From a phage: DNA of 64,000 bases. Both the position numbers and the translations under genes were made by a program. Numbering within the stretch: position 1 is the first letter of the stretch; every line of letters starts with the position of its first letter. The stretch lies in the sequence record PX393110.1, one strand, 5' to 3'. Below are positions 2,385 through 33,008 of this stretch, piece after piece. The notes beneath the pieces were generated by a model. That model worked only from the letters and a program-made list of their open reading frames with translations. It was not told where the DNA came from and searched no databases.

Positions 2385-5150
2385 CTACTCTTCCATAAAC
2401 GTAGTTACGTTATTGGAAAGGTAGGCACCGATTTTAGTATTATATCTCTGGAACGTAGGTACATGAGTAACCAGGATGATGTGATTAACCGGAATGTCCT
2501 GGAGAGCATCGATAGCTATGTCCAGAGTATTCACATCCAGATTCTTCAACGACTCATCCAGAATCAGGCATCCAGCACCTTTACTAAGGCTAATCAGCTT
2601 ACCGATGAACAGTACGTCCACCAGGTTCTGCTGACCACCAGAGAGATCAGAATACGGAATCAGGAACTCACCGACTTTGTATTGAACATCAAAGTCAATC
2701 TTGATATTTCCATTAGCCTGTTCACGAACGGTAGAGATGACCATATCACCACCAGTCATCATCGCAGCCACTTCCTTAAAGATAGAAGCAGTTACGTCAC
2801 CGCTATTAGTGAACAGATTCTGATACTCCACCAGCTTCTGATACTTAGGCTGAAGAGTAGCCAGCTCAGAGTTAGCCTTATCCAGCTTCGTCTGAGCATC
2901 GTCCATACGAGACTTAAGACTACGAAGAGTAGCCATAGCTCCGATAGTGGAGTTAATCTCGATAAGCTCTTGTTCCAGCTTAGCGACTTCCTCTTCCAGA
3001 ACTTGCACGGAGGAATAGGACTTAGTCTTATTCTTAAGCACTTCCACATCGCTATTGACGGTATGAATCTTCTGGCGAAGAGTGGCCACATCGTTTAGCA
3101 GACCGGACTTACGACGGAGTTCGACTAATTCGTTATTCTTAAGAGCCAGCTTCTGTCGGATTTCATCAGACTTAGGAGCCTTACTTATCTCAGCTTCCAC
3201 AGCATCCAACTTAGACACAGATACAGATCCCTGTGTCTCGAGCTCATCCATCTTACTTCTGATAGAGCTCTGTACCTGCTTAATGTCCTCTTCCTTAAGA
3301 GACTGTTTACAGGTAGGACAGGTAGTGGGAATATTCCGCATTTCTGTCTCTAACTTAGTCAACTCCTGTTCCAGACGAGTCAACTCCTTAGTTAGAGATT
3401 CGCTCTGGTTATGGAGCGAACGAATATTCCCTTCTACTTCCGACACTTCGGCATCTAGCAGAGTAATTTCGCCACGGACATTAGCGAGTGCGGAGTTAAC
3501 CTCTTCTTCGCTAAAGTCTATATTGAACGCAGCCAGCGAGTCTTCCAACATCTGAAGACTCTGTAGCTTACTATCCAAATTACCCAGCTCCCGGATCTTC
3601 TGACGAATATCATCAATCTGAGGAAGGATTCGGGATTTAGCCTCTTCCAGATCACTTACGTCCTTGAGTCTGGAGAAATCGTGATCCTCCATCGTCTTAA
3701 GGACTTCTTCCTGAGCAGTAACCTGAGTCTGGAGATTACCGATCTCTACCTTACAGTTCTTAGCCGAGGCCTTTGCGACAGCTTCGTACTGGTTAATTAC
3801 GGTAAGACCAAGCATCTTCGTTATCAGGTTGATACGCTCGTTGAATCCGAACTGGCTAAGGAACGGAGGACTGTTCTGGGAGCGGTACAGAAGATCGAAG
3901 TGTTCGAGGAATGGCAGCATCTCCCAGAGCTTAGCTTCACGCTCACGAATACTTCCGCCATCCATCTCATCGCCATCAATCCAGACTCGGAACGTCTGAC
4001 CACCAGCCCAATGGCGACTGATCAGGAATTCACGACCACCATACTCCAGCATCACTTCTACCAGAAGATGGTCCTGACCGAGTCTCACCACGTTACGAGG
4101 ACTGTCGCTACCAGTTAAGCAGTAGTTCAGAGCTCGTAACAGCGAGGATTTACCATTACCGGTTTCGCCGTAGAGATAAGTCAGACCTTTCTTAAAGTCC
4201 AGCTCCAACTTATCGATGCTACGGAAGTTCTCTACCTTAATGCTATTTAAGGTAAAGTTGAGGTCGAATACCGACTCGGAACGATCAACGTGGGTAGACA
4301 TCTCATCATGGATATCTTTAAGACCTTTAGCCCGAACGACTTTATCGATAACTTCTTCGACATCAATAGACTTAACCGAGATGCGTGAAGCATCCATCAT
4401 CTGAGCTCGTTCACGAACTACCAGATGTGGGTAATTGTCCAATCCGACAGGAACCTCATCTTCCCAGTACATCTTTAAGTACTTAAAGGAATCAGACTCT
4501 ACCGGAACCCGCTGCCAGGAAAGATCTTTGAGATCCAGCAGTACCAGACTGCCTTCCTGACTATCACCCATCCCATGAGGAATAGGCACGTTCACCGAGT
4601 GAGTATGACCGATGCTGATAGGACGGTGGATGTCACCCGCAAATCCCAGATCGTACTTAGTATCGTCGAACTCCTGACCGAACATCGAGGACAGGGTAAT
4701 ATGGCCGATTAGGACATCTACTTTATCCTGGATGAAGCTAAAGTCCTGAGTCGGACGCCAGTCGCTGAAGGCGACCTTACGGCCACCTAAGTTCAGGATC
4801 TTACCATCGACATACTCCGCCTTACCAGCCAGGATCGGCACCAGCGAGTTCTGATAGTGATCAGCATCTACCGATTTGGAGTTAATGTCGTGGTTACCCA
4901 GAATGTAGTAAATCTCGGAGAACTGCTCACCGAGGATGTCCATAAACTGGGAAGTAGCATGTGCAATCTTAGGCTCGTGCTGAGCCTTATGCACCAAGTC
5001 GCCAGCGATAGATAGGCAAGTAACTTTATGTTCCTTACCCATCTCCACCATACGATGAGCCAATCTGATAAACTGCTTTAGCCGAAACCCTTCCGAGTTA
5101 TGTTGCTGAAACTCATGAATATGAATATCAGCAGCAATTAACATTTTCAT
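2385..5150 (-). CDS. Fused Mre11/SbcD-like nuclease and Rad50/SbcC-like ATPase (single 921-aa polypeptide)
   Basis: N-terminal calcineurin-like phosphoesterase motifs (DIHIHE, GDLVH, GNHD, GDIHRP, GHTH); then Walker A GETGNGKSS, a long heptad-rich region with a CPTC zinc-hook, ABC signature LSGGQQ, Walker B CLILDE and H-loop VTHV. RBS GGAG before the ATG at 5150. Confidence 0.75.
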   Translation of the reverse strand: MKMLIAADIHIHEFQQHNSEGFRLKQFIRLAHRMVEMGKEHKVTCLSIAGDLVHKAQHEPKIAHATSQFMDILGEQFSEIYYILGNHDINSKSVDADHYQNSLVPILAGKAEYVDGKILNLGGRKVAFSDWRPTQDFSFIQDKVDVLIGHITLSSMFGQEFDDTKYDLGFAGDIHRPISIGHTHSVNVPIPHGMGDSQEGSLVLLDLKDLSWQRVPVESDSFKYLKMYWEDEVPVGLDNYPHLVVRERAQMMDASRISVKSIDVEEVIDKVVRAKGLKDIHDEMSTHVDRSESVFDLNFTLNSIKVENFRSIDKLELDFKKGLTYLYGETGNGKSSLLRALNYCLTGSDSPRNVVRLGQDHLLVEVMLEYGGREFLISRHWAGGQTFRVWIDGDEMDGGSIREREAKLWEMLPFLEHFDLLYRSQNSPPFLSQFGFNERINLITKMLGLTVINQYEAVAKASAKNCKVEIGNLQTQVTAQEEVLKTMEDHDFSRLKDVSDLEEAKSRILPQIDDIRQKIRELGNLDSKLQSLQMLEDSLAAFNIDFSEEEVNSALANVRGEITLLDAEVSEVEGNIRSLHNQSESLTKELTRLEQELTKLETEMRNIPTTCPTCKQSLKEEDIKQVQSSIRSKMDELETQGSVSVSKLDAVEAEISKAPKSDEIRQKLALKNNELVELRRKSGLLNDVATLRQKIHTVNSDVEVLKNKTKSYSSVQVLEEEVAKLEQELIEINSTIGAMATLRSLKSRMDDAQTKLDKANSELATLQPKYQKLVEYQNLFTNSGDVTASIFKEVAAMMTGGDMVISTVREQANGNIKIDFDVQYKVGEFLIPYSDLSGGQQNLVDVLFIGKLISLSKGAGCLILDESLKNLDVNTLDIAIDALQDIPVNHIILVTHVPTFQRYNTKIGAYLSNNVTTFMEE

Positions 5151-6004
5151 GCCGACTCCAGTATCTTAGCCGTAACGCATCTGTTGTACTTACCCAGTAC
5201 ACCATGGAAATACGGAGGAAATCTGTGACCTGGACAGAACTCTTCCAGAGTCGGTAAGATACGCTGTTGCATCTGTACCTTAGACTCCTGCTCCTTAATG
5301 ATGTTGTGGACTTCGGTATCAGTCAGAATCCTGTCGAGTCGCATTAGCTCCATATTGGAACGAACACGGAACTCTACCGATTGGCTTAGCGAACCATCTT
5401 TGTAAGCGTTAATCGCTTCCTTAACAGTCTTCAAGCCAGTAGCCACTCCTGGAATGTTGTCGGAGCCGTCCCCGACGATGGCTTTGTAGATGAGGTAATC
5501 CTTATGATCATCCAGATCGTAGGTCTTCATCAACCAGGGAAGATCTACTAAACCATCATCCGGATTCAGGACACAAGTATTCTCATTAATGGATAAGTAC
5601 CAGTCTCGGTCTCGTGAGTGTAACATGACCGGACGACCAGAATGAGCATAGTAGTAGCCTAAATCATCGGCTTCCACACCAGACACCTGGATACATTTAA
5701 TACCCAGCGACGGGAAGATCTGCTCGTGAAGAACATTCATAGCAGCCCACAATGCTTCGAAACTCTCGTCGTACTCACGATTGGCCTTATACTCTGGATT
5801 CTTATCCTTAGGTCTGTATCGCCACTTACCCCGATCGTACAGCATGATTAGTTCGGAGCTATATCCGTCTTCCTTAATCAACTTCGCTACACTACCGATA
5901 GTAGAGGCGACTGTAGGACCTAAATCCTGAGACTTACCGGCTGCGAACCAGTTACGAAGCGTCAACCACTGACAATCGACTGGTATTAACGGTATATCAT
6001 TCAT
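5147..6004 (-). CDS. 5'-3' exonuclease / flap endonuclease (RNase H-like, FEN family)
   Basis: GVEADDLGYY and GDGSDNIPGV motifs typical of Pol I-type 5' nucleases (T4 RNase H / T5 D15 class). Confidence 0.75.
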   Translation of the reverse strand: MNDIPLIPVDCQWLTLRNWFAAGKSQDLGPTVASTIGSVAKLIKEDGYSSELIMLYDRGKWRYRPKDKNPEYKANREYDESFEALWAAMNVLHEQIFPSLGIKCIQVSGVEADDLGYYYAHSGRPVMLHSRDRDWYLSINENTCVLNPDDGLVDLPWLMKTYDLDDHKDYLIYKAIVGDGSDNIPGVATGLKTVKEAINAYKDGSLSQSVEFRVRSNMELMRLDRILTDTEVHNIIKEQESKVQMQQRILPTLEEFCPGHRFPPYFHGVLGKYNRCVTAKILESA

Positions 6005-6020
6005 AGTCTACCTAGAGCGT

Positions 6021-6047
6021 CAAAAATAAAGGGACCGAAGTCCCTTT
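6021..6047 (-). terminator. Rho-independent terminator (AAAGGGAC-loop-GTCCCTTT)
   Basis: Hairpin 6028-6047 with a 4-nt loop; T-run on the minus strand; directly 3' of the 6061-7095 gene. Confidence 0.6.
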
Positions 6048-6060
6048 ATTAGTTAATTAA

Positions 6061-7095
6061 TTATTTACGGAATTTGGCGAAGCGAGAGGCAGCACCACCT
6101 TCTTCTTTGTCTTCGTCAGACTTATCGTCGCCGGCATCTTCAGTTTTATCTTCAGATTTGGCGTCAGATTTGTCGTCAGCAGCGTCTTCTTTAGACTCGC
6201 CTTTATCTTCAGACTTATCTTCGGCAGAGCTCGCGTCGGACTTAACATCAGACTTAGCGTCAGATTTGTCGTCGGCTTTCTGATCACCGGACTCTTCCTT
6301 AGATTCTTCGGCCTTAGCCTCTTCTTCAGCTTTAAGCTCTTCGAAGCCATCTTCGCCAACCAGCGGCAGACCTTTAGCCTTACGCTGGGAACGAATTTCG
6401 TCCAGATCTTTACGGACACGCTTGACCAGACCTACGTATTTGTCTTTGTCGAAGCCTTCACGGATGTACGCCTGAGCCAGCGGCTGGTAGGTCTGATCTG
6501 CAACTACCGGATCAGCTTTGCTGAACAGCGGAGTGAAGGTTACAGAACCCTGATTACCACGTACTACGGTAATCTTAACCGGAGAGCCTTTGATGTCTTT
6601 ATCCAGCATACCTTCCAGAACTTCCGGAGAGTCTTCCGCCAGCGCCGTAATGAAGTCGGTCAGTGCGTTAGCCACCTTACCGTTACCGATCACCGCATAC
6701 AGAGTATTCGGCTTCCAGTTATCAGACGGAGTGTCGGTTTTCTGCAGGAAGAAGTAGAACAGGATGTTGTACTTCAGACCGTATTTCCAGTGATTGTATT
6801 CGTTCAGCTCGTCGAGCATGTCATCCAGCTCGGCATAGTTGAAGTTTTCCGGCAGATCTTCACAGTCGGACGGAGTCTGAATACCATAGCTGAAGTAACC
6901 GTGAGTACGGACTTCACGATACAGGTTACCGACGGGGTCAGTTATGATACGACCCTGATGGCTACCTTCCGGAAGGAAAGTCGCGTTAGGGAAGTTACCG
7001 GTACCACCGGATTTCTCTTTACGCTCTTTCATTTTACCTGCGAGGGCTTTGATACCAGCTACGTCTAACTTCTTAACTTGAACTTGTTCAGTCAT
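6061..7095 (-). CDS. Putative ssDNA-binding protein with a long acidic K/D/S/E low-complexity C-terminal tail
   Basis: 344 aa; position between nuclease and helicase genes; C-terminal 90 aa is a repetitive KSD/KSE acidic tract like SSB tails. No zinc-binding motif seen, so function is inferred. Confidence 0.35.
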   Translation of the reverse strand: MTEQVQVKKLDVAGIKALAGKMKERKEKSGGTGNFPNATFLPEGSHQGRIITDPVGNLYREVRTHGYFSYGIQTPSDCEDLPENFNYAELDDMLDELNEYNHWKYGLKYNILFYFFLQKTDTPSDNWKPNTLYAVIGNGKVANALTDFITALAEDSPEVLEGMLDKDIKGSPVKITVVRGNQGSVTFTPLFSKADPVVADQTYQPLAQAYIREGFDKDKYVGLVKRVRKDLDEIRSQRKAKGLPLVGEDGFEELKAEEEAKAEESKEESGDQKADDKSDAKSDVKSDASSAEDKSEDKGESKEDAADDKSDAKSEDKTEDAGDDKSDEDKEEGGAASRFAKFRK

Positions 7096-7154: not shown

Positions 7155-7187
7155 CCTTAACAGCCTTTCGACCCTCCAAAAGAGCGG
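7155..7187 (-). promoter_or_regulatory. Conserved promoter-like motif, copy 2
   Basis: CCTTAACAGCCTTTCGA...AAAAGAGCGG; intergenic, about 60 nt upstream of the ATG at 7095. Confidence 0.5.
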
Positions 7188-7191
7188 CGGA

Positions 7192-8232
7192 CTACACCTT
7201 ACGCAGTCGGTCTATCATTTTAGCCCGATGCTGCTCTTCTGTATTGATGATCGAGTACATACGAACCAATACTGACGGATCATTATCTACTCGGTTGGCT
7301 AACTTATCCAGAGCACCTAAGTAGATACTGGTCTCTTCCTTGATTACCTTACGAACTGAGTCAGCAAAGGTAAATCCAATACTGTCTGGGTTGAACGTAA
7401 TACCGTCCAGCATCACAGCCAGCATCACATTGTCCTGGAAGATGTCCGATTTAATAGAATCCAGTACACTATTCTTGCGGACTGTTTCCAATATCGAGAC
7501 GACCTTAGACACCTTCGGGAACCCTTTCCGGCCATTCAGTAGTTCCAGGAAGGTAAAGAATTTGCCTATGTCTTTGATAGATGTAAGCAGCAGGAATAGT
7601 TCAGGATGGTGCTCTGCCAGAATCGACAGGAACATCATCTTCTCTGTATTCGTCTTAGGAATCAGATCCTGTATCGCTTTAATATCTACGTCGGTCACGA
7701 TTGCTCCCATATGTTCGAGTATACGAGTCACGATGATCCTGTCTGTCAGATCAAGATGCTCGACCATAACCACTCCCCAGTCTAAATATAGCTGGATGAT
7801 AGGTTTGAATCGGTTAGGGAGGAACTGATTCCAAAGATTAACATAGCGATGGACAGCCACTTCCTGTCTAACGCTGTAACTATTGCCTAACTCCAGAGCC
7901 TTGTAAAAATCTGAGTTCTCGGCTAATTCGGGTTCTAGCATGTCGATCGATACTTGCTTTACTTCTTTCTTAATTATCGACTCGAGATGATCCCGTGTAA
8001 CTTCTTCTGTGGTAGTGAGCAGCATGTAGGTTAAGCTGGTCACTGCAGAAGATAATGCCTCTTCGGTCTGTCCTCTGAATTTATAATAGGTACACACCCG
8101 TCGGACTATGGCTAGTGATAAGGTGAATAGGGTACGAGAATCCCTCTTCACAGAATTGATCTCCCTATTCACCAATTCAACTAGCTTTTCGACGGTAGCG
8201 TTCTCGAGGATCTCTACCATCTCTTTTATCAT
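7192..8232 (-). CDS. hypothetical protein (346 aa), replication-module context
   Basis: ORF track; RBS GGAAGA; no diagnostic motif recognised. Confidence 0.5.
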   Translation of the reverse strand: MIKEMVEILENATVEKLVELVNREINSVKRDSRTLFTLSLAIVRRVCTYYKFRGQTEEALSSAVTSLTYMLLTTTEEVTRDHLESIIKKEVKQVSIDMLEPELAENSDFYKALELGNSYSVRQEVAVHRYVNLWNQFLPNRFKPIIQLYLDWGVVMVEHLDLTDRIIVTRILEHMGAIVTDVDIKAIQDLIPKTNTEKMMFLSILAEHHPELFLLLTSIKDIGKFFTFLELLNGRKGFPKVSKVVSILETVRKNSVLDSIKSDIFQDNVMLAVMLDGITFNPDSIGFTFADSVRKVIKEETSIYLGALDKLANRVDNDPSVLVRMYSIINTEEQHRAKMIDRLRKV

Positions 8233-8456
8233 TTAAATATCTTCCTCAGACCAGCATCCGGATCACCCTCATCCACGAAATCCTGCTTAATGCTAACTGC
8301 ATCGTTGATAGATATTTTGAACTCCTCGTCGGAAACACGAGTAATAGTTCCGTATTTACTCTCTATGGAGTTGCCTGGACTTATGGAACTCAGCACCATA
8401 AATACCATGGCTTCGTTGGGTAGGGTACCTACGATATCGGACAGCTTTACACTCAT
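8229..8456 (-). CDS. hypothetical protein (75 aa)
   Basis: ORF track; overlaps downstream gene by 4 nt; N-terminus MSVKLSDIVG resembles the N-terminus of the helicase at 11818. Confidence 0.4.
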   Translation of the reverse strand: MSVKLSDIVGTLPNEAMVFMVLSSISPGNSIESKYGTITRVSDEEFKISINDAVSIKQDFVDEGDPDAGLRKIFK

Positions 8457-8459
8457 ACA

Positions 8460-8909
8460 TTACCCCATACTTGATAAAGAGATAGACTTTTCGTCTAGTT
8501 CGCATACCTCCGTGATTAAAATCAGGTATTCGTAATTATCTTTATCATTGATTAGTTTATCCATATTCAAGGTGATCGTGAATCGATCATCTATGCTAAT
8601 AGCTTCCTTGACCGCATCTTCCACTGCTTTAATCAGGTTAGATACATCGCGAGTCCAGAATGATTGGCTGAACGAGAATATCATGCGGATATTCAACATC
8701 ACGGACTTACCTTTATATGGCAGAAATGCTTCTCTAGCTCCCTGCATATCTAAGGAGGATTTCACCCACTCCTTAAAGTCCTTGATGCTAGGGTCGAGAT
8801 AGACCCACGATCTTCCTCCACGAGCCCTCCCGACTTTATACATTTCGTTCACGGAGGGGAAATTCCCTCCGTATTGCAGAATGTAGTTATGAGTTCCTAA
8901 TACTTCCAT
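8460..8909 (-). CDS. Possible RusA-like Holliday junction resolvase
   Basis: 149 aa; NEMYK and RDVSNLIKAVEDAVKEA...IDDRF segments resemble RusA catalytic-region motifs, but the D-x-D is D-x-S here. Strong RBS GGAGGAA. Confidence 0.4.
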   Translation of the reverse strand: MEVLGTHNYILQYGGNFPSVNEMYKVGRARGGRSWVYLDPSIKDFKEWVKSSLDMQGAREAFLPYKGKSVMLNIRMIFSFSQSFWTRDVSNLIKAVEDAVKEAISIDDRFTITLNMDKLINDKDNYEYLILITEVCELDEKSISLSSMG

Positions 8910-10168
8910 TAGTTCCTCCGACCACCTCTGCCACCATAAGTCTGTAGGCGAGAATACACATCACGAGTAATCTGTTCGATTTCACCATGAGCTCTCATGA
9001 TCCAAGGTGAGCTAATTCCGTCCTTACCACGACGGCACTTAGCCACTTTAAGAATACCGCAGTGCTTCTCACTACGAGGACTCAGACCGACCGTAACCAT
9101 CATATCTACGTTCTGCTGCTTACGAGCAGATTCACCAGCAGAATCGATATTCAGTTCTTCCTCTCCCCAGTATTGAATCTTAGGCTGAGAGGCAACGAAC
9201 ACCAGGCGAGCAGGTTCGTAGATAGGTTTAGCTATGGAAGTCAGGATGTCATAGATATGACCACCATCGTCATACATACTTCCTGTTTCCGGACGCTTAA
9301 GGTTGGAGTCATAGTCCACTACCAGACAGTCGTAGCGCTTCTTACCTCGACAACTATCCAGGTATTCTTCCAGATCTTCAGCACCGAGACTACGAGAAGG
9401 CACTGTAATCAGGTCGATATAGTTCAGGATCTCACGAACGTCGTCGGTAAGGTGTTTATTCAGTTCGGCGACAACCTTAGCATAAGGAGTACCGGTGATC
9501 ACCGCCGTAGCACGAGATAAGAAGTCGTAGCGAGTTAAGTCGCCAAGAGCTACCCATAAAGTGCGACGACCCTGTGTAGCGAATCCGAGGACTTCCTGTA
9601 GCATGATAGCAGATTTACCACCACCAGGACGACCTACGAACTGAATTACCTGACCAGGAATATAGCCATTAAATACCGAGGCTTCAGTAACCACATCCAG
9701 AGTAGACTGGAATACGCCATCTAAGCCACCGATGTCATGTTCCATTACAGTATCTACATCCAGACCACCCAGAGTATGTACCGGAATAGTCGAAGTCAGA
9801 CTACGTGGAATATCACGAATCAGATCAATCAACATACCGGTATCTTCGGAGTTAGCTTTCATGATCTCTGTCAGTTTACGCTCCTGATAGAATCGGAAGA
9901 AGTTATTCACAATCTTCTCAATTTCTTTAGGATCGTTAACCAGACGGAAATTCTCGGCCAACTCAACAAAGTTAGATATGTCCTCTGCAGGACATACCTC
10001 ACCAAGTATCGAGTGAATTACAGCTGGGGTGGCATCCTGTAACTTAATACCGGACTCCACGAGGGTTCTTGCAATCTCAGTAGACCAGGGAAGATCATTA
10101 ATCGTGAGTCCCATAGACTCTTTGATCTTAGGGTTAAACAAACTTGCTACGTGTGTGATCTCTGACAT
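8909..10168 (-). CDS. DnaB-like replicative DNA helicase
   Basis: Walker A GRPGGGKSAIML, Walker B-like CLVVDYDSNL, RecA-fold C-terminal domain. Confidence 0.7.
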   Translation of the reverse strand: MSEITHVASLFNPKIKESMGLTINDLPWSTEIARTLVESGIKLQDATPAVIHSILGEVCPAEDISNFVELAENFRLVNDPKEIEKIVNNFFRFYQERKLTEIMKANSEDTGMLIDLIRDIPRSLTSTIPVHTLGGLDVDTVMEHDIGGLDGVFQSTLDVVTEASVFNGYIPGQVIQFVGRPGGGKSAIMLQEVLGFATQGRRTLWVALGDLTRYDFLSRATAVITGTPYAKVVAELNKHLTDDVREILNYIDLITVPSRSLGAEDLEEYLDSCRGKKRYDCLVVDYDSNLKRPETGSMYDDGGHIYDILTSIAKPIYEPARLVFVASQPKIQYWGEEELNIDSAGESARKQQNVDMMVTVGLSPRSEKHCGILKVAKCRRGKDGISSPWIMRAHGEIEQITRDVYSRLQTYGGRGGRRN

Positions 10169-10177
10169 TTCTATGTC

Positions 10178-11818
10178 CTATTTGCGAAATGATACCTTAG
10201 TGTGACTGATTACTTTCAGTCTACTTTTAATAGTTTCCATCTTGGACTTCATCTGCTTATTCAGCATATAATTATGCTTATCGAAGAAGAGTCCTACCTT
10301 AACCGCATCACCACGAGCCGAACGACCGATAGTCTGGATTACGCTCTTGTATGACTTGCCAGTTAAGGGTATAATAGAATCTAAGTTAGGGATGTCGATC
10401 CCTTCGGTACCAACGGAAGTAGTGATCAGCACTTTGAATGCTAAATCCTCAGCCAGTTCCTTGAGCTCGTCAAGTCCTAACCCTTCCGCTTCGCCTACAG
10501 GTGTCCAAACTACCGAACTCGAGAAGAATACAGTATCGATACCGATAGCATTCAGATTTCTAGCCATCTGAACACCATCTTCGACCTGAACCATCGGGAT
10601 ATAGGTTATACCTTTACCACCGAATACTTCATTATAAGTTCGTTTAATAGCCTCAGCAGTCATCATGCTACCCATATGCAGGTACAAACTACCTAACATA
10701 TACTCGGGTCGCTCTTTCTGATACTTGGCAATAACAGATCTGTCTTCTGACATCTCAACTAATATTTCGGTTAACTCTACCGGAACAGGTAGGTCATGCT
10801 CGATAATAGATGGTCCACAGTATGCTAATACCGCCATCCCCTTACTCGAAGCACCAAACTTAAATCCCTCGACGAGTAAACTGACGCCCTCCAGAGAATC
10901 CCCAGTGGCCGTAGTTCCCCAGATATACTCGGGATCGATAAGTTCTGTAAGTCTCTGCCAACCAGATGCAGAGAAGTGGTGAGCCTCGTCGGCTATAATA
11001 CAGTTAACCTGATTAAAGAACTCGGAGTACTCACCTTTCTTGTACTTATTGGTTCTCTGGAGTCCCGCCGGATTAATAACGTTAATCGGACTATTTACAT
11101 CCAGATCCCACGGAATAGTTACCCCGTACTTAGCAGCACGTAGAATAATCTCTTCCTTAACTCGGTTAGCGAAAGTATAGATCAACACTTTCTCTGTCAG
11201 ACCCGCTTCCAGTACAGACTCAGCAGTACCGATCAGCAGTTCTGTTTTACCAGCACCCGTATATAACCCGATGATCCCGAACTTAGAGTGACAGATAGCA
11301 TCTGCCGCACTCATCTGAATCTTACCCTTTTCAGGCTTAGGGTGATTTTCGAATACATCCAGCCATTTACGACTGAACTCGAATGCTGGCTCTTCCAGAC
11401 TATTATCGAACTGGGTAGGATCATCAGACGTAGCTATCGCAGTAGCACCAGGAATTACCTGAGCTCCTGAGTTGATCAGCTGATATAACATCTGACCTAC
11501 ACCGAGCTGGCAATTAACTTCACCAGCAAATAGACTCGTATATTTAATCTCTTTACGAGTCGGGAACATCCGTTTCATTCTCCAGTTATATTCCATCACA
11601 TCTTCGATGGCTGTGGAGAACATATGAATCTGTTTCAGTGCTTCCTGATCGTCAGCTGTGATCTTGCACAACATCCGAGACTCACGAGTAAAGTGTATAG
11701 TATACTCTTTACCAGCCGACTCGTTCTGAATCTTGGCTAATTCCATACGAATGGCTTTAGACACATCCGGATTTACCTTAGCCTTCTTCCCTACAAGATC
11801 CTCTAGCTTTACAGACAT
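10178..11818 (-). CDS. SF2 DEAH-box helicase (UvsW-like)
   Basis: Motif I GAGKTE, motif II IIADEAHH, motif III TTATG, motif V TTSVGTEGIDIP, motif VI QTIGRSARG; RBS AAGAGGAG. Confidence 0.75.
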   Translation of the reverse strand: MSVKLEDLVGKKAKVNPDVSKAIRMELAKIQNESAGKEYTIHFTRESRMLCKITADDQEALKQIHMFSTAIEDVMEYNWRMKRMFPTRKEIKYTSLFAGEVNCQLGVGQMLYQLINSGAQVIPGATAIATSDDPTQFDNSLEEPAFEFSRKWLDVFENHPKPEKGKIQMSAADAICHSKFGIIGLYTGAGKTELLIGTAESVLEAGLTEKVLIYTFANRVKEEIILRAAKYGVTIPWDLDVNSPINVINPAGLQRTNKYKKGEYSEFFNQVNCIIADEAHHFSASGWQRLTELIDPEYIWGTTATGDSLEGVSLLVEGFKFGASSKGMAVLAYCGPSIIEHDLPVPVELTEILVEMSEDRSVIAKYQKERPEYMLGSLYLHMGSMMTAEAIKRTYNEVFGGKGITYIPMVQVEDGVQMARNLNAIGIDTVFFSSSVVWTPVGEAEGLGLDELKELAEDLAFKVLITTSVGTEGIDIPNLDSIIPLTGKSYKSVIQTIGRSARGDAVKVGLFFDKHNYMLNKQMKSKMETIKSRLKVISHTKVSFRK

Positions 11819-11820
11819 AA

Positions 11821-12339
11821 TTACTCCTCTTTACTCTGGTAAAGTAACTGGACATCTGCCGCATTCTCGACATATTCCTGAGCTATACGAATAGCCCTAA
11901 CGACCATAGCCTTCTCTCCCCAGCTTAAGAACTCAGGAGTAGCGGCCATCTTAACGATCAACTCACGAGACAGATCTTCGATACACTTAATCTTGTTCGA
12001 GACCTTAGGAAACGCGAGTCTGTTATTGATGGTGATACGATCAGCAGGAATCTGGGTGAAGGTCTCGCCGAACAGTCTATCGAAATCTCCGATGTCGAGT
12101 TCAGTGAAGTAACCCTTACCTTCTTCCGTATCAAATATCCCATGAACTACTACGTTCTGTCGGATAGACACATTTAGTAAGTACTTAGAGTTCAGTAAGA
12201 TAACGTAGATACTCGAATAGCTTCGGAGATCACGTTTCCATGCTGATAACGACTCAGTAGGTGAGCCTTTGTATTCTACTCCCGAATTAAGAAGCATCTT
12301 AGCAAATGGGTCTAGGCTGTTAATTACTACAGTACTCAT
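11821..12339 (-). CDS. hypothetical protein (start refined to the ATG at 12339)
   Basis: Track ORF begins at a GTG at 12360, which would abut the promoter-like motif; the in-frame ATG at 12339 has an AAGGAG RBS 7 nt upstream. Confidence 0.45.
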   Translation of the reverse strand: MSTVVINSLDPFAKMLLNSGVEYKGSPTESLSAWKRDLRSYSSIYVILLNSKYLLNVSIRQNVVVHGIFDTEEGKGYFTELDIGDFDRLFGETFTQIPADRITINNRLAFPKVSNKIKCIEDLSRELIVKMAATPEFLSWGEKAMVVRAIRIAQEYVENAADVQLLYQSKEE

Positions 12340-12362
12340 TGTATTCTCCTTGGGTGCCACAG

Positions 12363-12395
12363 TTTAACAGCCTTTCGACGCTAATTAAAGGTGGT
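12363..12395 (-). promoter_or_regulatory. Conserved promoter-like motif, copy 3 (upstream half degenerate)
   Basis: TTTAACAGCCTTTCGA conserved; the AAAAGAGCGG half is replaced by AAAGGTGG. Confidence 0.4.
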
Positions 12396-12696
12396 CTTTA
12401 ACAGTTCCCAGAATATTATCTCTGGTATGGATTACGCCACTACGATTGGCTTCAATACGTGTGGTAGCTACTATTTCAAATACTTCTAATTGGATAGTAG
12501 GATGAATCATGCAAGTACGGATCAACATAGACAGAGCATCTTCGTAGCTCTGATAACCAGTCGCGTTCTTGTGATTATCCTGCCAAAGTCTATCTGTCGC
12601 CTGAGCTCGCTCCGAGATGTAAGAGATCTTACCATCTTTCATCTGACCAACACAATACTTAGCTTCAGAACTATCTGAAATATGTAACGTTTCCAT
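12385..12696 (-). CDS. hypothetical protein (103 aa)
   Basis: ORF track; co-oriented. Confidence 0.4.
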   Translation of the reverse strand: METLHISDSSEAKYCVGQMKDGKISYISERAQATDRLWQDNHKNATGYQSYEDALSMLIRTCMIHPTIQLEVFEIVATTRIEANRSGVIHTRDNILGTVKDHL

Positions 12697-16268: not shown

Positions 16269-16811
16269 TTAGACGCTCGCCTCAGACACTTTAACAGCCT
16301 TTGGAACTGTAAAAAGAGCGGGTTTATACCATTCGGGAGTGCGGTAGAAAGTAATGGTACGACCCTCTTTCTCCCAGATATAGTATTTATCGTTCAGGTA
16401 GTTACGATACTTCTCGTAAACTGTTTCGCCAGGAGCACCTGCCACACACGCATAAGGTGTCATGTCAGTCTCCGGACCGACCTTCAAGTTCTTAGGCAGT
16501 TTGCTGAGTCGCGACAGAATAATATCTGTGGCATGCATACGACCGGTACGTTCATAGAACAGGATACACAGATAGTTAGCCAGCTCTTTAACGAAGTTGT
16601 AGTTACCGGAAGATTCACGGACCCAGCGTGCTGATGGGTGATTTACGTGAGTCTGTTTGTAAATACCCTCGATAGCTTGATCGCCATCCAGAACATGATG
16701 AGCTGTGGACAACAGCTGAGCACATTCGATAATCATTTTATTCTGGTGCATTGGCATACAATGGTCCATAGCACATTCTAACGCATCTTCGTGAGTACGG
16801 AAAATATTCAC
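16269..16811 (-). CDS. hypothetical protein (180 aa; GTG start)
   Basis: ORF track; AGGAG 8 nt upstream of the GTG at 16811. Confidence 0.5.
   Translation of the reverse strand: MNIFRTHEDALECAMDHCMPMHQNKMIIECAQLLSTAHHVLDGDQAIEGIYKQTHVNHPSARWVRESSGNYNFVKELANYLCILFYERTGRMHATDIILSRLSKLPKNLKVGPETDMTPYACVAGAPGETVYEKYRNYLNDKYYIWEKEGRTITFYRTPEWYKPALFTVPKAVKVSEASV
16290..16321 (-). promoter_or_regulatory. Conserved promoter-like motif, copy 8 (overlaps the 3' end of the upstream CDS)
   Basis: TTTAACAGCCTTTGGAACTGTAAAAAGAGCGG; the last codons of the 16269-16811 ORF read through it. Confidence 0.45.
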
Positions 16812-16896
16812 TATAATTACTCCTAACGTGGTTTGCTTACTTTAAGTCTCTCGTAAAAGATTTAGAGTAAGCATCGGAGGTAACCACCTCCGACAC

Positions 16897-16928
16897 TTTA
16901 ACAGCCTTTCGACGGTACAAAAGAGCGG
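16897..16928 (-). promoter_or_regulatory. Conserved promoter-like motif, copy 9, followed by a 5' hairpin GGAGGTGGTTACCTCC
   Basis: TTTAACAGCCTTTCGACGGTACAAAAGAGCGG; the hairpin at 16876-16891 would sit at the predicted 5' end of the transcript. Confidence 0.5.
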
Positions 16929-16930
16929 TT

Positions 16931-17086
16931 TTAAATCTTACATGCGTCCCCGCAGTCGTCGTCACCAGGCTGGCTGATAACTTCGTCTACGTTAACCATG
17001 CGATCTTCGACACGCTTAGATGCTTCGTCGAGTTCTTCCTGAGAAGGAATATTATTGAAGTCCAACTCTTCAGCAGATTTGCTCAT
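16931..17086 (-). CDS. Small acidic protein (51 aa; start refined)
   Basis: The track ORF 16931-17299 overlaps the neighbouring gene in another frame; the ATG at 17086 has GAGGAA upstream; product MSKSAEELDFNN...DDDCGDACKI. Confidence 0.4.
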   Translation of the reverse strand: MSKSAEELDFNNIPSQEELDEASKRVEDRMVNVDEVISQPGDDDCGDACKI

Positions 17087-17093
17087 AGTTTCC

Positions 17094-17429
17094 TCATAAG
17101 AACATTTTGACAAGATGTTTAGTACCGTTGATAGCAGCTTTCTTAGCAGCCGACTTAACATGAGCTTTAACTTTCTTATGTAAAGTCTTGGACTTAGCCT
17201 TATTTTTAAGGAGTCGTCCGGCAGCTTTAGCCCTACGCTTGATTCTGTTAGCTGATTCGGAAATAGCAATACCTTCCTCATCAGTAACATCATCAACATT
17301 AGACGAAGCTATCATCAGTAACTGATCATCGGTTAAACCAGCTGCTATGGTTTTGACGAATATTCCTTCATCGACATCACCAACAGCATTAAGGAGATCC
17401 TGTGATTTTGACATAATCTTCCCATACAT
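17094..17429 (-). CDS. hypothetical protein (111 aa, lysine-rich C-terminus)
   Basis: ORF track; AAGGAAG 7 nt upstream of the ATG at 17429. Confidence 0.45.
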   Translation of the reverse strand: MYGKIMSKSQDLLNAVGDVDEGIFVKTIAAGLTDDQLLMIASSNVDDVTDEEGIAISESANRIKRRAKAAGRLLKNKAKSKTLHKKVKAHVKSAAKKAAINGTKHLVKMFL

Positions 17430-17883
17430 TAATTACTTCCTTACCCAGAGATTTAGCATGGGTTACACAGTTACCTGTACCACCCTTGCTGCCATCCCAT
17501 AAGGCTAATCCCTTCTGACTACGGTTAACCATGTAACGGTTACGCACCATCATCTTGAAAGAATCATACCCAGGCTCGGAAACTATAATTGTGCGACGAC
17601 TTCTCCTGCAGAGCTCAGTCCATTTTTCTACATCTGCAGATCGCCACATCTTGGGCTGGTCAATCATAGGGACTGCTGCGAAATATGGTATTCCGAGGTT
17701 AGCACATGCTTGAGCACATGCCATGTCCCATCCTAAAGCCATACCCACGAACCAGCAGTCGACCTTATTTTCTTCGGTCAACCTCTGGATATGATGTTCG
17801 GCAAACTGGGTAAGCTGATCATGGCTAAAGATATCCCAGCCACCCAGTTTATCTGGCCTATGACCAGTGACGAACATAAACAT
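17389..17883 (-). CDS. Possible SLOG/YpsA-like Rossmann-fold protein
   Basis: 164 aa; TGHRP near the N-terminus and WDGSKGGTGN near the C-terminus, recalled as typical of YpsA/DUF1273-type SLOG domains; assignment from memory only. Confidence 0.3.
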   Translation of the reverse strand: MFMFVTGHRPDKLGGWDIFSHDQLTQFAEHHIQRLTEENKVDCWFVGMALGWDMACAQACANLGIPYFAAVPMIDQPKMWRSADVEKWTELCRRSRRTIIVSEPGYDSFKMMVRNRYMVNRSQKGLALWDGSKGGTGNCVTHAKSLGKEVINVWEDYVKITGSP

Positions 17884-18224
17884 TACTTCTTCTCTATCTT
17901 GGCCTGCTTAGCCTTAACTAAAGCCAATGCGTTAGCCAGTTTAGCAGAAGTATCCTGCGGACCATCTTCTTCGAGCTGTTTCTTCAGGGACTCCATACGA
18001 TCGGTAGTCCCTTTAGTATCCATCTCGATTAATTCGTTGATGGTCGACCCGCCGACGTTAGGTAACTTGCCGAGTTGCGACAAATCCTTAACTTCGGGGA
18101 TCTTAACGTGAAGTTGAATAGACTGGGATGCTCTCGCGAATGACCCAGCACGACGATTGTCTCCTACCTTATTATATAGGGAAGATAGGTTACCCAGGAA
18201 CGTAATGATATCAGCAGTTTTCAT
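17883..18224 (-). CDS. hypothetical protein with a helix-hairpin-helix-like motif (start refined)
   Basis: Track start at 18239 is a TTG; the ATG at 18224 has GGAGGA 6 nt upstream; LGKLPNVGGSTINELIE is HhH-like. Confidence 0.45.
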   Translation of the reverse strand: MKTADIITFLGNLSSLYNKVGDNRRAGSFARASQSIQLHVKIPEVKDLSQLGKLPNVGGSTINELIEMDTKGTTDRMESLKKQLEEDGPQDTSAKLANALALVKAKQAKIEKK

Positions 18225-18242
18225 ATTTGATTCCTCCAACGG

Positions 18243-18274
18243 TTTAACAGCCTTTGGACCTTACAAAAGAGCGG
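18243..18274 (-). promoter_or_regulatory. Conserved promoter-like motif, copy 10 (at the strand-switch region)
   Basis: TTTAACAGCCTTTGGACCTTACAAAAGAGCGG, about 20 nt upstream of the ATG at 18224. Confidence 0.5.
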
Positions 18275-18420
18275 TTTTTATTCAAAAAGAGTGTTAAAAT
18301 TAGGTTTTTGAGCTTTACAGGACGCCCCTGCGCTCTAAAGATAGGCCTCAAAAGGGTGTTTTTGTGAAGGTTGTCCGAGCCCCGTCCGGGACGTCTTCAA
18401 CTATAAACAGGAGAAATACA

Positions 18421-18894
18421 ATGGGCGAGTTAGCTAAGCAAAACTTAAGTACTATTCAAAAGGGTCTTTCCTTAGTTAATTCGGAGGGTTCTGAATCCGT
18501 TAACGTCAAAGCCCTACAAGGTAAAGAGATAGGCTTACAGATTCTCCAGCTAGGTCTGGCTGAGTCTGAGGCTAACCGAGTAGCCAAGCTTAACGGGATT
18601 ATCGAGATCCTCGAAAAGAAAATCTTTGATCCTGAGCGTCTGGACAGACTCACCGAGAAGGAGCAGATCGAGAGATATCAACTGGCATTAGCTAGTGCAT
18701 CTCAGTCGGCAGCATTCGTTAAATCGACCATTGGTTCGATTAACTGGACAGCTATCGAAGTATCTCTGCTGAGTCTGGCTTCCGCCATAGAGACTGCCAA
18801 TGAAGGTCAGTCTCCTAAGGATCGTAAAGATATGTCTACTATCGCCAATAACTTGATTAAGCAATTGGCGGAAGGCATTGGTCCTAAGGGGTAA
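18421..18894 (+). CDS. Putative terminase small subunit (by position)
   Basis: First gene of the plus-strand block, immediately upstream of the large terminase; ATG at 18421 with AGGAGA RBS (the track start at 18364 lacks an RBS). Confidence 0.35.
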   Translation: MGELAKQNLSTIQKGLSLVNSEGSESVNVKALQGKEIGLQILQLGLAESEANRVAKLNGIIEILEKKIFDPERLDRLTEKEQIERYQLALASASQSAAFVKSTIGSINWTAIEVSLLSLASAIETANEGQSPKDRKDMSTIANNLIKQLAEGIGPKG

Positions 18895-18897
18895 ACC

Positions 18898-20724
18898 ATG
18901 ACTGATGCATTAGATGAGTTTATTGAAGCATGTGGCTCTAGACTCGAAGCTATGCATCAGTTAGCGTTGATGAGTGGCTACGAGGAGCGGGTTCCGACGA
19001 TCCAGGATTTCATAATGGATCCGTACTACCTGGGTAAGTCTCTGGTAGATGCTGACGGTGTCTGCTCGGTCTATCCTATATGGATGGATGCTCTAGCTAA
19101 GATTTACCCTACTCCTTACACTTCACCAGCTGTAGAGATTTATCTAACTGGTGGTATCGGTCTGGGTAAGTCAACTGCTGCTAAGATTATCACTCTCTAC
19201 GACCTGTGCAAATTGCTATGTCTTAGAGATCCTCGCGCTCATTTTAAACTTCTGCCATCCACAGTAATTCGTTGGATGTTGATGAACGCCACTAAAGGTC
19301 TATCCTACGATGTACTCTACGCAGAGATCATCGAGTGGATAGAGAACAGTCCATTCTTCAAAGGTAAGATGACTGGTGGTAAGAATCCTCGTACTTTGTT
19401 CATTAAGAATGTGGACTTAGGATTCGGTTCTCGTGGTCAGGATGCTCTGGGGCAGGCTACCGTAGGTGCTATCTTCTCAGAGATAAACGACATGACCGTA
19501 GTTCATGGTCAGGCAGAAGATAACTTCGACACCATCTATACTCGTATGAACTCTCGTTTCGGGGGTAAAGGGGTAGAGATGATTGGCCACTTGATTCTAG
19601 ACTCTTCGAATAAGGGAAACCGTTCCTTTATCGATGTTCGTCTAGAGGATAAAGCCAAGAAAGGAATTAACGACTATCTGTTATTCAGATATGCCCACTG
19701 GGAAGCTAAATGGCACCTCGGAGGGTATTCTGGGGAAATGTTCTACGTCTATGCTGGTGACCAGTATCGAGATCCGTTTATCTTTGATGAGAATACTCTC
19801 AAGATTAAAGACGGTCTGGAGCCATCTCGTATTATCTCTGTACCTGTTGAACATAGACAGGAATTCGAGACTAACATTGTTAAGTCTCTCAGGGATCTTG
19901 CTGGTGTGTCTACATTCGGTACATGGTCGTTCATCTCGTCCTACGAGGTGCTTAACCGAGCAGCTGACCACATTAACCCTACTGAATCTAACGTGGTAGT
20001 TCTGGACTTCTTCGATAAGGAGCAGACTCTTCACCAGACTATAGATGTCCCCAGACTTGCCTTCCTTAATAAGAAGGATCGGTTCATCCATATTGACTTG
20101 GGTCTTAAGAACGACTCAACTGGTATAGCCTGTTCTTATCTCGATGGTTATGTAGACCAAGAGACCTATGATCCTCTGACCAGTACTCGCATGGTTACTC
20201 GTGAACCTAAGATTGTTACTGAGTGGGCATTAGAAATTACCTGCCAGCCTGGTCAGGAAGTCCCTATCTACAAGATTAAGAACTTCTTAATAGAAGCATC
20301 TCAGCAAGGTTACCCAATTAAAATGGTAACCACAGATGGATACCAATCCACGAACTTACGTCAGGATTTAACTCTGGCTGGGTTCGAGACTGCTCTGCTA
20401 TCTGTAGACCGGACTAAAGACCCGTATAACTACTTAAGAAACTCGATTCTCGAAGGTCGCAGCACTATTCCTGCTGTACCTAAACTGATCAAGGAGCTTA
20501 AAGAGTTGGAGGAAGGAGAAGGTAAGTTCGACCACCCTCCGTCGGGGAGTAAAGATATCGCGGATGCTGTCTGCGGATCTCAGTGGTCAGTTAAAGAGAA
20601 TATCCATAAGATAGGGTCTACTGCCACGGTTGAAGATCTTCAAGTTGCACTCCACGAACTTAATAAGTCTAGGGATGCGAAGGAGATGTTTCGGAACATT
20701 ATTAAGCAACGAGTGGGTGGCTAA
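18898..20724 (+). CDS. terL: Terminase large subunit
   Basis: 608 aa; Walker A GGIGLGKST in the N-terminal ATPase domain; C-terminal nuclease-like domain with conserved acidic residues (HIDLGLKNDSTG, VTTDGYQS). Confidence 0.8.
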   Translation: MTDALDEFIEACGSRLEAMHQLALMSGYEERVPTIQDFIMDPYYLGKSLVDADGVCSVYPIWMDALAKIYPTPYTSPAVEIYLTGGIGLGKSTAAKIITLYDLCKLLCLRDPRAHFKLLPSTVIRWMLMNATKGLSYDVLYAEIIEWIENSPFFKGKMTGGKNPRTLFIKNVDLGFGSRGQDALGQATVGAIFSEINDMTVVHGQAEDNFDTIYTRMNSRFGGKGVEMIGHLILDSSNKGNRSFIDVRLEDKAKKGINDYLLFRYAHWEAKWHLGGYSGEMFYVYAGDQYRDPFIFDENTLKIKDGLEPSRIISVPVEHRQEFETNIVKSLRDLAGVSTFGTWSFISSYEVLNRAADHINPTESNVVVLDFFDKEQTLHQTIDVPRLAFLNKKDRFIHIDLGLKNDSTGIACSYLDGYVDQETYDPLTSTRMVTREPKIVTEWALEITCQPGQEVPIYKIKNFLIEASQQGYPIKMVTTDGYQSTNLRQDLTLAGFETALLSVDRTKDPYNYLRNSILEGRSTIPAVPKLIKELKELEEGEGKFDHPPSGSKDIADAVCGSQWSVKENIHKIGSTATVEDLQVALHELNKSRDAKEMFRNIIKQRVGG

Positions 20725-22302
20725 ATGGCAGAAAACGAAGTGGTCTCTAAGCAAGACTTAGATGACAAACCTGGTTCTCGCCAGGAGGTCTTAGCAAAGT
20801 TGCTAGACGATACCATCACTATGAAGCATAGCGATGGATTGTTGGGCACGGTACAGGCTTACCTTACCGATCGCCTTACCAATATGGTAACCACTCGTGA
20901 AAAGTATTTCAACGAGCTGGCGAGATTTCGCTATAACTATATCACAGCTGGTATCTATGATATCATCTGTAATGACGTGCTCACCAATACGGATGATGGT
21001 GGATTCGTCATAGAAATTGAAGGTGATGAAGAACTGACTCGGGAGGCAAATGAGCTAATTAAAGCTCTAGCTATCCCAGACTTCCTCACTTCCATTTTGC
21101 CGGAGTTACTGCATTATGGATCATACCCCTTAAGACCGTCACTGGAAGATGGCGAGGGATTGATTGGGTTGGTGGATGATTTTGATCCTCGTGATGTTAT
21201 CGCAGTAACTGATTCATCCGGCCTTCCTATTTTCTTCTTCGTAAACTATACGACGAAGGATGCTGGGTATATAGACTATGAGTCTCGTCAGAAAATGGAG
21301 TATCTAGGCCCTCAAGAGGTATCTTACCTCTCTCTGGATCAGAACTTCATTAAGCTGCCGATTCCCGATAAAGTCACTGCCCAGATGAAGCGTAAAATCA
21401 CGGAAGAGCTGGGTGAAGATGAACCCATGGTTAAGCTCATGGGTAAGTCGATTAAAATTCGTTCGTCCTTATCATTCTTATGGGGATCTCTGGATAAGCT
21501 CAAGAATATCTTGATGCTGGATAAGGTTAACGTCTATAAGACGCTGGCTAACCTCCTAAGTCCGTCTGTAATCGGTGTTCCTCTTCCGAACAATAACGAC
21601 ATTAAGCAGATGAAGTCTATAGTCAACGACTATGACCAAATCATTAACAGTACTAACCTGTTTGCTGCTGATATGAGTAACCTCCAGTTTAATCTGCAGG
21701 ATATCGTATCAGTTAAAGTCGTTCCTATCTCTGGAGATCGGTCTGTACCTCAGATCCTGGATACTGGTAAGTCGGATAACACTATCGATCCGGAGAAGAT
21801 CAGATCCGAGTTAGAGGTTCTGTTACAGTCCTATGGTATTCCTCTGGAATTATTCCTTGGAAGCCTTTCCTCTAAGGATAACCTAAGGACGAATATTCGT
21901 TACGCTAAGAAGATCAAGCGCATCGGTAAGAGTCTGTGTAAATGGCTGCAGTATCTGCTGCTGTTACACTTCGGCTTTAAATACGAAAATCTGGATCTAG
22001 AGTTATCTGAAATTAAGGTAACCCTGAAGTCCTCGATTAACGTAGATGCTCTTGAGAATATGGAGACTCAAGATCTTCTTATCACAAGTATTAATGGTAT
22101 GACTGGAATGCTGGATTCTCTGAAGAACGAGATCGAGAACTCCAATTATACTATTGATAACGATGCTCTGCTTAAGGTAGTCGCGGATACTCTCGCAGAT
22201 ATAGGCTCTCCGTTCCATGGAGTAATTAAGCTTAAGTCTGAGGTACCAGTAACCCAGCAGACTCCTCCTGCTCCCCCAGAAGATGGTGAAGAGAATGAAT
22301 AA
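20725..22302 (+). CDS. Portal protein
   Basis: 525 aa, directly downstream of the large terminase with start/stop overlap; acidic C-terminus; assignment by size and synteny. Confidence 0.6.
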   Translation: MAENEVVSKQDLDDKPGSRQEVLAKLLDDTITMKHSDGLLGTVQAYLTDRLTNMVTTREKYFNELARFRYNYITAGIYDIICNDVLTNTDDGGFVIEIEGDEELTREANELIKALAIPDFLTSILPELLHYGSYPLRPSLEDGEGLIGLVDDFDPRDVIAVTDSSGLPIFFFVNYTTKDAGYIDYESRQKMEYLGPQEVSYLSLDQNFIKLPIPDKVTAQMKRKITEELGEDEPMVKLMGKSIKIRSSLSFLWGSLDKLKNILMLDKVNVYKTLANLLSPSVIGVPLPNNNDIKQMKSIVNDYDQIINSTNLFAADMSNLQFNLQDIVSVKVVPISGDRSVPQILDTGKSDNTIDPEKIRSELEVLLQSYGIPLELFLGSLSSKDNLRTNIRYAKKIKRIGKSLCKWLQYLLLLHFGFKYENLDLELSEIKVTLKSSINVDALENMETQDLLITSINGMTGMLDSLKNEIENSNYTIDNDALLKVVADTLADIGSPFHGVIKLKSEVPVTQQTPPAPPEDGEENE

Positions 22303-32093: not shown

Positions 32094-32099
32094 GGATCA

Positions 32100-32930: not shown

Positions 32931-33008
32931 TCTTTACCACGTGAAAAGGATGGACTTTTCCGAGGCATTCCACCATTATCAAGAAATAGTTGCTGCGGAG
33001 AGTAAATA

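Follow-up and report, generated by a model that had tools for sequence, protein, structure and literature searches.

A near-identical N-terminal decapeptide on an SF2 helicase and a small neighboring protein of an Escherichia phage: a possible remnant of old partial duplication or fusion

A stretch of 64,000 nucleotides from the phage sequence record PX393110.1, referred to here in its whole length as the window, carries on its minus strand a gene for an SF2 helicase and a gene for a small acidic protein whose products begin with nearly the same ten residues. This match is rare among the N-termini encoded in the window, it lies in the helicase on an extension restricted to certain lineages of the helicase family, each of the two N-termini has been inherited vertically within its own family, and the DNA around the two starts shows no duplication. 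There is about an even chance that the N-terminal part of the small protein and the N-terminal module of the helicase are connected by an old event of partial duplication or fusion, the two modules being putative homologues; the decapeptide is most likely the best-preserved remnant of such an event.

The shared peptide and its rarity

The comparison concerns the following features, the small ones being parts of the two genes.

8229..8456, minus strand: small acidic protein of 75 amino acids (aa), MSVKLSDIVG start, from the list of open reading frames (ORFs); a conserved family without family assignment
8427..8456, minus strand: codons 1-10 of the small ORF, MSVKLSDIVG, ATG AGT GTA AAG CTG TCC GAT ATC GTA GGT
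10178..11818, minus strand: SF2 helicase, 546 aa, MSVKLEDLVG start; ResIII, Helicase_C, phrog_16
11705..11818, minus strand: N-terminal extension of the helicase, residues 1-38, MSVKLEDLVGKKAKVNPDVSKAIRMELAKIQNESAGKE, from alignments with relatives
11789..11818, minus strand: codons 1-10 of the helicase, MSVKLEDLVG, ATG TCT GTA AAG CTA GAG GAT CTT GTA GGG

The sequence-only reading of the window that first noted the pair had placed both starts on the minus strand, MSVKLSDIVG at 8456 for the small ORF and MSVKLEDLVG at 11818 for the helicase, and these assignments are confirmed. Eight of the ten residues are identical, and the two differences, S/E and I/L, are conservative or semi-conservative. 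Both peptides are unchanged in the two phages most closely matching the region from 8000 to 12400, Escherichia phage vB_EcoM_IME392 (116 kb, 90.8% DNA identity; IME392 below) and EP_H11 (111 kb, 89.6%), besides which a search of the phage collection with this region found no matching record.

For the N-termini of the 71 ORFs of the window, a position-specific Poisson-binomial calculation gives a chance expectation of 3.2e-4 for any pair with at least 8 of 10 identities, and none of 5000 column shuffles of these N-termini reached that level. The chance model can be regarded as calibrated because an all-against-all scan of 9-mers recovered 23 pairs with at least 7 of 9 identities between different window proteins at arbitrary positions, which is the number that the null predicts. 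The unusual aspect of the shared peptide is that both copies lie exactly at residue 2. No third gene carries it among all candidate starts of the window and the remaining ~52 kb of IME392, and a search of the same sequence in six frames with the pattern [KR]L[SETDA][DEA][ILVM][ILVM]G found the two known sites only. A genome-wide N-terminal tag, serving as a targeting or processing signal, is ruled out by this restriction of the motif to two starts in a ~116-kb genome.

Coincidence is an alternative to common ancestry. It holds that two unrelated N-termini, evolving separately within their families, came by chance to agree at 8/10 residues in this clade, and that the weak likeness farther downstream is no more than the general succession of a helix and a beta-hairpin; it is a real if less likely explanation. 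Unrelated proteins of the window often match at 7/9 residues, as the 23 pairs attest, MS- starts are frequent in it, and the scanning of many windows will yield events of the 3e-4 kind. For any single window, however, only ~3e-4 such pairs are expected, and the peptide falls on a lineage-restricted extension in one of two genes of the same operon.

Absence of a copied translation-initiation region

The sequence-only reading had offered, next to coincidence, a small duplication of a translation-initiation region as the origin of the match. This would be a recent duplication or gene conversion by which the ribosome-binding site and first codons of one gene were copied to the other. Some features of the two starts speak for such an event: codons 1-10 are identical at 21 of 30 bases, both starts lie 2-3 nt past an upstream TAA stop with a G-rich Shine-Dalgarno box before them, and the same codon is used at 4 of the 7 identical non-Met residues in the window (2.4 expected, more exactly 2.37; p = 0.17) and at 5 of 7 in IME392 and EP_H11 (p = 0.04). 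Outside the decapeptide, however, ungapped DNA identity is at background level (9/40 bases upstream and 9/30 in codons 11-20), and the longest exact match between the two start regions is 9 nt. If one gap is allowed, the leaders of both genes share GG(G/A)GTAAT(G)TATG, a Shine-Dalgarno box overlapping the preceding TAA stop, but the junction GG(G/A)GTAA occurs in 9 of the 71 window genes and is generic. The codons for Ser2 belong to different families, AGT in the small ORF and TCT in the helicase, so that at least two substitutions are required, and each N-terminus can already be found in diverged members of the family to which it belongs. Given a leader with no similarity beyond the Shine-Dalgarno-TAA junction, together with the Ser codon families and the short longest match, recent duplication or gene conversion was set aside as ruled out; as an explanation of the pair it is largely refuted and highly improbable.

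A duplicated initiation region is thus not supported. As to the extent of the likeness, which in the sequence-only reading might have ended at the fifth codon, the peptide match runs to codon 10, with only generic similarity in the leader; of the two origins then suggested, the copied ribosome-binding site falls away and coincidence is still live. A shared translational operator or regulon motif, ATGNNNGTAAAGCT, was also ruled out: it is unlikely because there is no exact copy beyond these two, and its near matches lie away from gene starts, so that no regulon-wide operator lends weight to copying. On these comparisons, the similarity of the two N-termini is at the protein level and old, and it agrees better with an ancient duplication of part of a gene than with copying of a ribosome-binding site. 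The two N-termini each go back far within their families, so that their near-identity in the E. coli phage clade is not recent.

A lineage-restricted extension of the helicase

By its sequence matches, the protein is an ordinary phage SF2 replication/recombination helicase. It lies above the Pfam gathering scores for both ResIII (6e-12, 46.1 bits; cut-off 22.5) and Helicase_C (4e-6, 27.6 bits; cut-off 23.5) and matches phrog_16 at 1.5e-28. Phage homologues align to it from residue ~134-150 onward only, or from residue 40 in an exhaustive search, and the decapeptide is the tip of a ~37-residue extension at its N-terminus. Most of the helicase family is without this extension, including the helicases of Acinetobacter phage Ab1-TPeters, Ralstonia phage RP13, the IMG/VR contigs L007 and L008, the metagenome contig L017, and the proteins P0013 and P0014; the helicases of most relatives begin directly at the first beta-hairpin of the N-domain, with starts such as MISIEF.., MAKLEF.., MLTLSR.., and MTTIKF... 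In an exhaustive HMMER search, an alignable extension of the same length was found only in this E. coli phage clade and in two proteins encoded on Logan contigs, P0012 of L025 (SRR15882663; core 59% identical; extension MKGIEDILKKISTQNTNSVSKSLSQALSSIK..., start MKGIEDILKK) and P0015 of L026 (SRR15882619; core 40% identical; extension MSIKNLIPVALLNKNPSQELTKELRERL..., start MSIKNLIPVA). A word-indexed protein search with helicase residues 1-206 returned nothing; IMG/VR held no close relative, and alignment-based scans of IMG/VR and metagenomes yielded distant extension-less loci only.

The extension is extra sequence placed between the upstream gene and the ancestral start of the helicase, and no gene boundary has been shifted, since the upstream gene, of 172-179 aa, aligns with its L007 homologue right up to its C-terminal end. 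It is also translated, because differences among the three E. coli phages in the first 38 helicase codons are almost all synonymous; in the same three phages the first ten codons of the small ORF show 3 synonymous changes and 0 replacements. Judged by these substitution patterns, both N-terminal regions are translated and under purifying selection. An internal helicase start at M25 is ruled out by the near-synonymous-only drift of the extension and by the homologous extensions of P0012 and P0015.

The family of the small protein

The gene for the small protein always lies between a RusA-like gene and a gene of ~346 aa. The counterparts of the protein in IME392 and EP_H11 show 96% identity and differ mainly at synonymous positions, and there are syntenic homologues in Ab1-TPeters, RP13, L007, L008, L017, L025, and L026. 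A profile search with the family recovered 11 database proteins and a word-indexed protein search one near-identical cluster, and comparison of the protein with Pfam and PHROG gave no match. The family conserves a hydrophobic helix that terminates in LS.LP.G and a hairpin with the pattern YG.ItR.S...FkI.I. At its N-terminus, the sister lineage L025, with 49% overall identity in the small protein, has MSIDLSEVIG, and L007 has ..SRLEALLG; the presence of MSIDLSEVIG at the same position in L025 indicates that the peptide was inherited vertically within this family. Retention of the N-termini across deep divergence, as MSIDLSEVIG in the small protein of L025 and MSIK.. in the helicase of P0015, also argues for selection on the peptides.

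In the record of IME392 the small ORF is unannotated (51193-51420), falling into a gap between two coding sequences, and in EP_H11 it is listed as a hypothetical protein (WBU87774.1). A further unannotated ORF of IME392 (L015), 105 aa long at 5792-6106 on the minus strand, is the top non-self match of a hidden Markov model (HMM) of the small family among 474 ORFs (E = 0.01-0.02); it may represent a second, distantly related copy of the fold of the small protein, or else be noise.

Similarity beyond the decapeptide

Past the first ten residues, a number of comparisons of the two modules give marginal signals of likeness in the same register. BLASTP aligns the window pair with 23/65 identities (E = 0.007), a score dominated by the decapeptide, and the register is constant throughout, residue n of the small protein corresponding to residue n+5 of the helicase. 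From residue 11 onward, a Smith-Waterman comparison within a collinear band gives p = 0.02. When the window small protein is compared with the whole 542-aa P0012, its residues 22-57 align without gaps to P0012 27-62, without the decapeptide, at E = 0.008. Comparison of profiles with hhalign matches the small family to the N-termini of extension-bearing helicases over 44 columns (P = 0.028) and to those of extension-less helicases, where only the hairpin is available, at P = 0.037. An HMM of the helicase N-terminus ranks the small ORF as top non-self match among the 474 genome ORFs, at E = 8.7e-4 with the full profile, E = 0.07 with the first ten residues masked, and E = 0.04 when the profile is built from P0012 and P0015 only. 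That comparisons without the decapeptide match in the same register, and that the small ORF leads the non-self matches of helicase profiles made without the E. coli clade, speaks against coincidence.

Structure prediction adds a similar pattern. The AlphaFold2 (AF2) model of the small protein, built from a 12-sequence alignment, has a predicted local distance difference test score (pLDDT) of 77, rising to 82-93 over residues 1-50, and comprises helices at residues 5-9 and 12-23, strands at 30-33, 36-40, and 46-50, a disordered acidic stretch, and a final helix at 66-74. A single-sequence model of helicase residues 1-165 places helices at 5-9 and 18-33 and strands at 38-43 and 48-54, so that the order of elements (helix, helix, two strands) is alike in both models. 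An HU/IHF-like fold for the small protein was considered, and no significant structural match was found.

Several results weigh against common origin. All tests outside the decapeptide are marginal, and they are mutually non-independent. Unbanded shuffles from residue 11 onward give p = 0.06-0.16, the hhalign probabilities are just 1-2%, and earlier, shallower profiles gave hhalign E values of 0.2-0.3. In the reverse direction, the HMM of the small family fails to recover the helicase from the 474 genome ORFs. In L025 the resident small protein and helicase are not significantly similar (z = 1.0), and the L025 small protein does not match the window helicase; the N-termini of that pair, MSIDLSEVIG and MKGIEDILKK, share just a hydrophobic/acidic pattern, as coincidence would have it. 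The helicase model is unreliable, with a pLDDT of 41, and fold searches returned no helicase N-domains. Finally, the extension is patchy on the helicase core tree. In the neighbor-joining tree of the cores, the window clade and P0012 group together as sister to the extension-less P0013 and P0015 lies on a deep branch, so that gain, loss, and exchange are all possible. Comparison of within-genome with cross-genome similarity likewise gave no clear excess that would point to concerted evolution (mean z 0.9 versus 0.3, a difference that comes from the window pair).

Origin of the two N-termini

The observations favoring common origin are the rarity of the match, the position of the extension, the shared operon, the constant register, and the top ranks obtained with profiles from outside the clade; none is decisive alone, they are mutually dependent, and together they would suggest rather than establish it. 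The tip of an extension, where the peptide lies, is the expected place of an acquired module. By this account, the first ~60 residues of the helicase would derive from the N-terminal part of the small protein by copying and divergence. In the small protein the copied part would consist of the short helix, the longer helix, and the beta-hairpin; in the helicase it would correspond to the 37-residue extension, present in some members of the family, and then to the ancestral N-domain as far as its first beta-hairpin. Purifying selection would since have kept both N-termini, and among the E. coli phages these would by chance still agree at 8/10 residues.

Functional convergence without common ancestry would explain the same data differently: the same short helix, L-x-D-h-V-G, would dock both proteins onto a shared partner such as the DnaB-like helicase or a presumed single-strand-binding protein. 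The peptide does not vary among three phages although the small ORF has drifted at synonymous sites, the pattern h-[SE]-[DE]-h-h is kept by both families in L025, a helix at residues 5-9 is predicted in both regions, and the genome offers a second N-terminal motif in the same register with different codons, VLS.VDEA, in the major capsid protein and a 95-aa ORF. The partner is neither known nor predicted, however, the motif is found in two genes only, and P0015 retains MSIK without the acidic pattern, all of which make convergence improbable.

If the modules do share an origin by duplication or fusion, a more specific relationship between the proteins can be imagined, in which the 75-aa protein would be a free-standing paralogue of the module borne in cis by some members of the helicase family, and the N-terminal helix MS-V-K-L-x-D-h-V-G would dock both onto the same partner at the fork or junction. 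Such a docking pair, which is a speculative and rather unlikely proposal, would be a new pair of helicase and accessory protein specific to IME392/RP13/YerA41-related phages, which have been placed together on the likeness of their DNA polymerases (PMC12686479).

Genomic setting

Both genes sharing the peptide sit in a minus-strand replication/recombination module of this IME392-like E. coli myophage. In the direction of transcription, the module contains a gene of 172-179 aa with unknown function, the SF2 helicase, a DnaB-like helicase, a RusA-like resolvase, and the small 75-aa ORF, followed by an unknown 346-aa gene, a 344-aa acidic-tailed, presumed single-strand-binding protein, a 5'-3' exonuclease, and a 921-aa Mre11/Rad50-like protein. 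Features next to the two genes are:

8460..8909, minus strand: RusA-like Holliday-junction resolvase, 149 aa; Pfam RusA 1.3e-6, 29.5 bits (cut-off 22.8); phrog_140
8909..10168, minus strand: DnaB-like replicative helicase, 419 aa; phrog_19 at 3.6e-19
11821..12360, minus strand: upstream gene, function unknown, 172-179 aa; from the ORF list
12363..12375, minus strand: promoter-like repeat AAAGGCTGTTAAA, with the next copy at 7156-7168, downstream of the 346-aa gene

The RusA-like gene ends in a TAA stop 3 nt upstream of the ATG of the small ORF, and the 172-179-aa gene in one 2 nt before the helicase ATG. The DnaB-like helicase, which separates the two genes sharing the peptide, is 37-42% identical to the syntenic genes of the relatives. 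The gene order helicase, DnaB-like, RusA-like, small, and ~346-aa gene is kept in Ab1-TPeters and RP13, in the IMG/VR contigs L007 to L012, in L017, and in L025 and L026. The AAAGGCTGTTAAA copies at 12363 and 7156 probably flank one transcription unit that holds both genes.

This repeat occurs in 12 copies in the window, 11 of them exact, where ~1 is expected, all on the minus strand (1711, 7156, 12363, 13353, 14818, 16050, 16232, 16290, 16897, 18243, 62515, and 63590). All 12 are intergenic, 20-60 nt 5' of minus-strand gene starts, and their flanks are also conserved, giving a bipartite arrangement ccGCTCTTTTg-N7-8-tCGAAAGGCTGTTAAAnTGt, also written ccGCTCTTTTg-N7-8-tCGAAAGGCTGTTAAA. From its sequence and placement, the element looks like a phage-specific bipartite promoter of early/replication genes.

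At the far end of the module, the 921-aa polypeptide (2385-5150, minus strand) joins in one chain a metallophosphatase of the Mre11/SbcD type (residues 1-184) and an ATPase of the Rad50/SbcC type, the latter with a zinc-hook match; at the equivalent position, Ab1-TPeters has two separate annotated genes, an 'exonuclease' and an adjacent 'SbcC-like subunit'. More widely, the IME392 record annotates a split RNA polymerase beta and beta', thymidylate synthase, dCTP deaminase, and dUTPase (16457-21418; 31858-32931; 106161-107519). IME392 has been grouped with phages having a YerA41-like DNA polymerase, in the context of thymidine hypermodification, with carriers of 5hmdUMP-synthesis genes tabulated (PMC12686479).

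Other shared N-terminal sequences in the window

Three further pairs of proteins with similar N-termini were observed. The putative major capsid protein (24054-25481, plus strand; MTKQNIVLSNVDEAS...) and a 95-aa ORF (26911-27198, plus strand; MVTAAEVLSSVDEAT...) have (I/E)VLS(N/S)VDEA(S/T) in common at residues 6-15. The codons differ at nearly all third positions, the two sequences are not otherwise similar (BLASTP E = 0.09), and the motif is kept in IME392. Upstream of the capsid gene lies a gene for a head maturation protease (phrog_207), and the motif could therefore represent a propeptide or cleavage site common to the two proteins. A quite different case is that of the adjacent genes at 41959-42726 and 42739-45648, both on the plus strand, whose N-terminal domains are paralogous (48% identity over 123 residues, E = 1e-40), with a second, weaker copy of the domain at residues 215-266 of the protein encoded at 42739-45648; by their position and size, they look like modules of the tail-fibre or tailspike type on a common anchor domain. 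In the third pair, the protein beginning MTEQVQVKKL (6061-7095, minus strand) and an ORF at 61423-61893 (minus strand) share VQVKK at residues 5-9, with 6/10 identity. This is within the range of shuffling, as the column-shuffle maximum reaches 6 in ~23% of cases.

Relation to known systems and significance

Helicases of the T4 UvsW type resemble the helicase described here in having a ResIII and Helicase_C core after an N-terminal domain that begins with a beta-hairpin, and in their setting in a replication/recombination module beside DnaB-like, RusA-like, FEN, and Mre11/Rad50-like genes. They differ in that the helicase here has the additional ~37-residue extension, and UvsW was not retrieved by sequence from the Protein Data Bank (PDB), where the best matches were XPB-type ATPases at ~5e-5. 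The link to UvsW is provided by the annotation of Rhizobium phage homologues only, as 'ATP-dependent RNA-DNA and DNA-DNA helicase'.

Near-identical N-terminal peptides on unrelated proteins are of course known from the internal proteins of phage T4, which are otherwise unrelated and carry a capsid-targeting peptide of ~10 residues, being head proteins cut by the prohead protease. The likeness lies in a start peptide of this length maintained at the protein level; here, by contrast, the carriers are two only, they belong to the replication module, and the logic of the protease is inapplicable. The T4 model fits the pair of capsid protein and 95-aa ORF better than that of helicase and small protein. 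A beta-clamp-binding motif, QL[SD]LF, and the T4-type protease site L-x-E, both compared by eye, fitted poorly and were set aside.

Another parallel is offered by fusions of the Rosetta-stone type, as domain accretion in mosaic phage genomes, in which a free-standing small gene coexists with a similar N-terminal module on a nearby enzyme and the fused form is found in part of the helicase family only. In the present case, the homology of the two modules is weakly supported and the free-standing gene is kept in all genomes, including those that bear the extension. By analogy with such fusions, the small protein may work with the N-terminal domain of the helicase or bind the same partner.

At best, then, the finding is a new instance of the known accretion of a domain from a neighboring gene. 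Were the match a coincidence, nothing would follow from it, and in either case the insight is one of annotation and not of a new mechanism, with a lineage-restricted N-terminal extension of the helicase now documented. If the common origin is true, it would provide the first functional handle on a conserved small protein of a poorly studied group of phages, and that protein would be predicted to act with, or to compete with, the N-terminal domain of the helicase.

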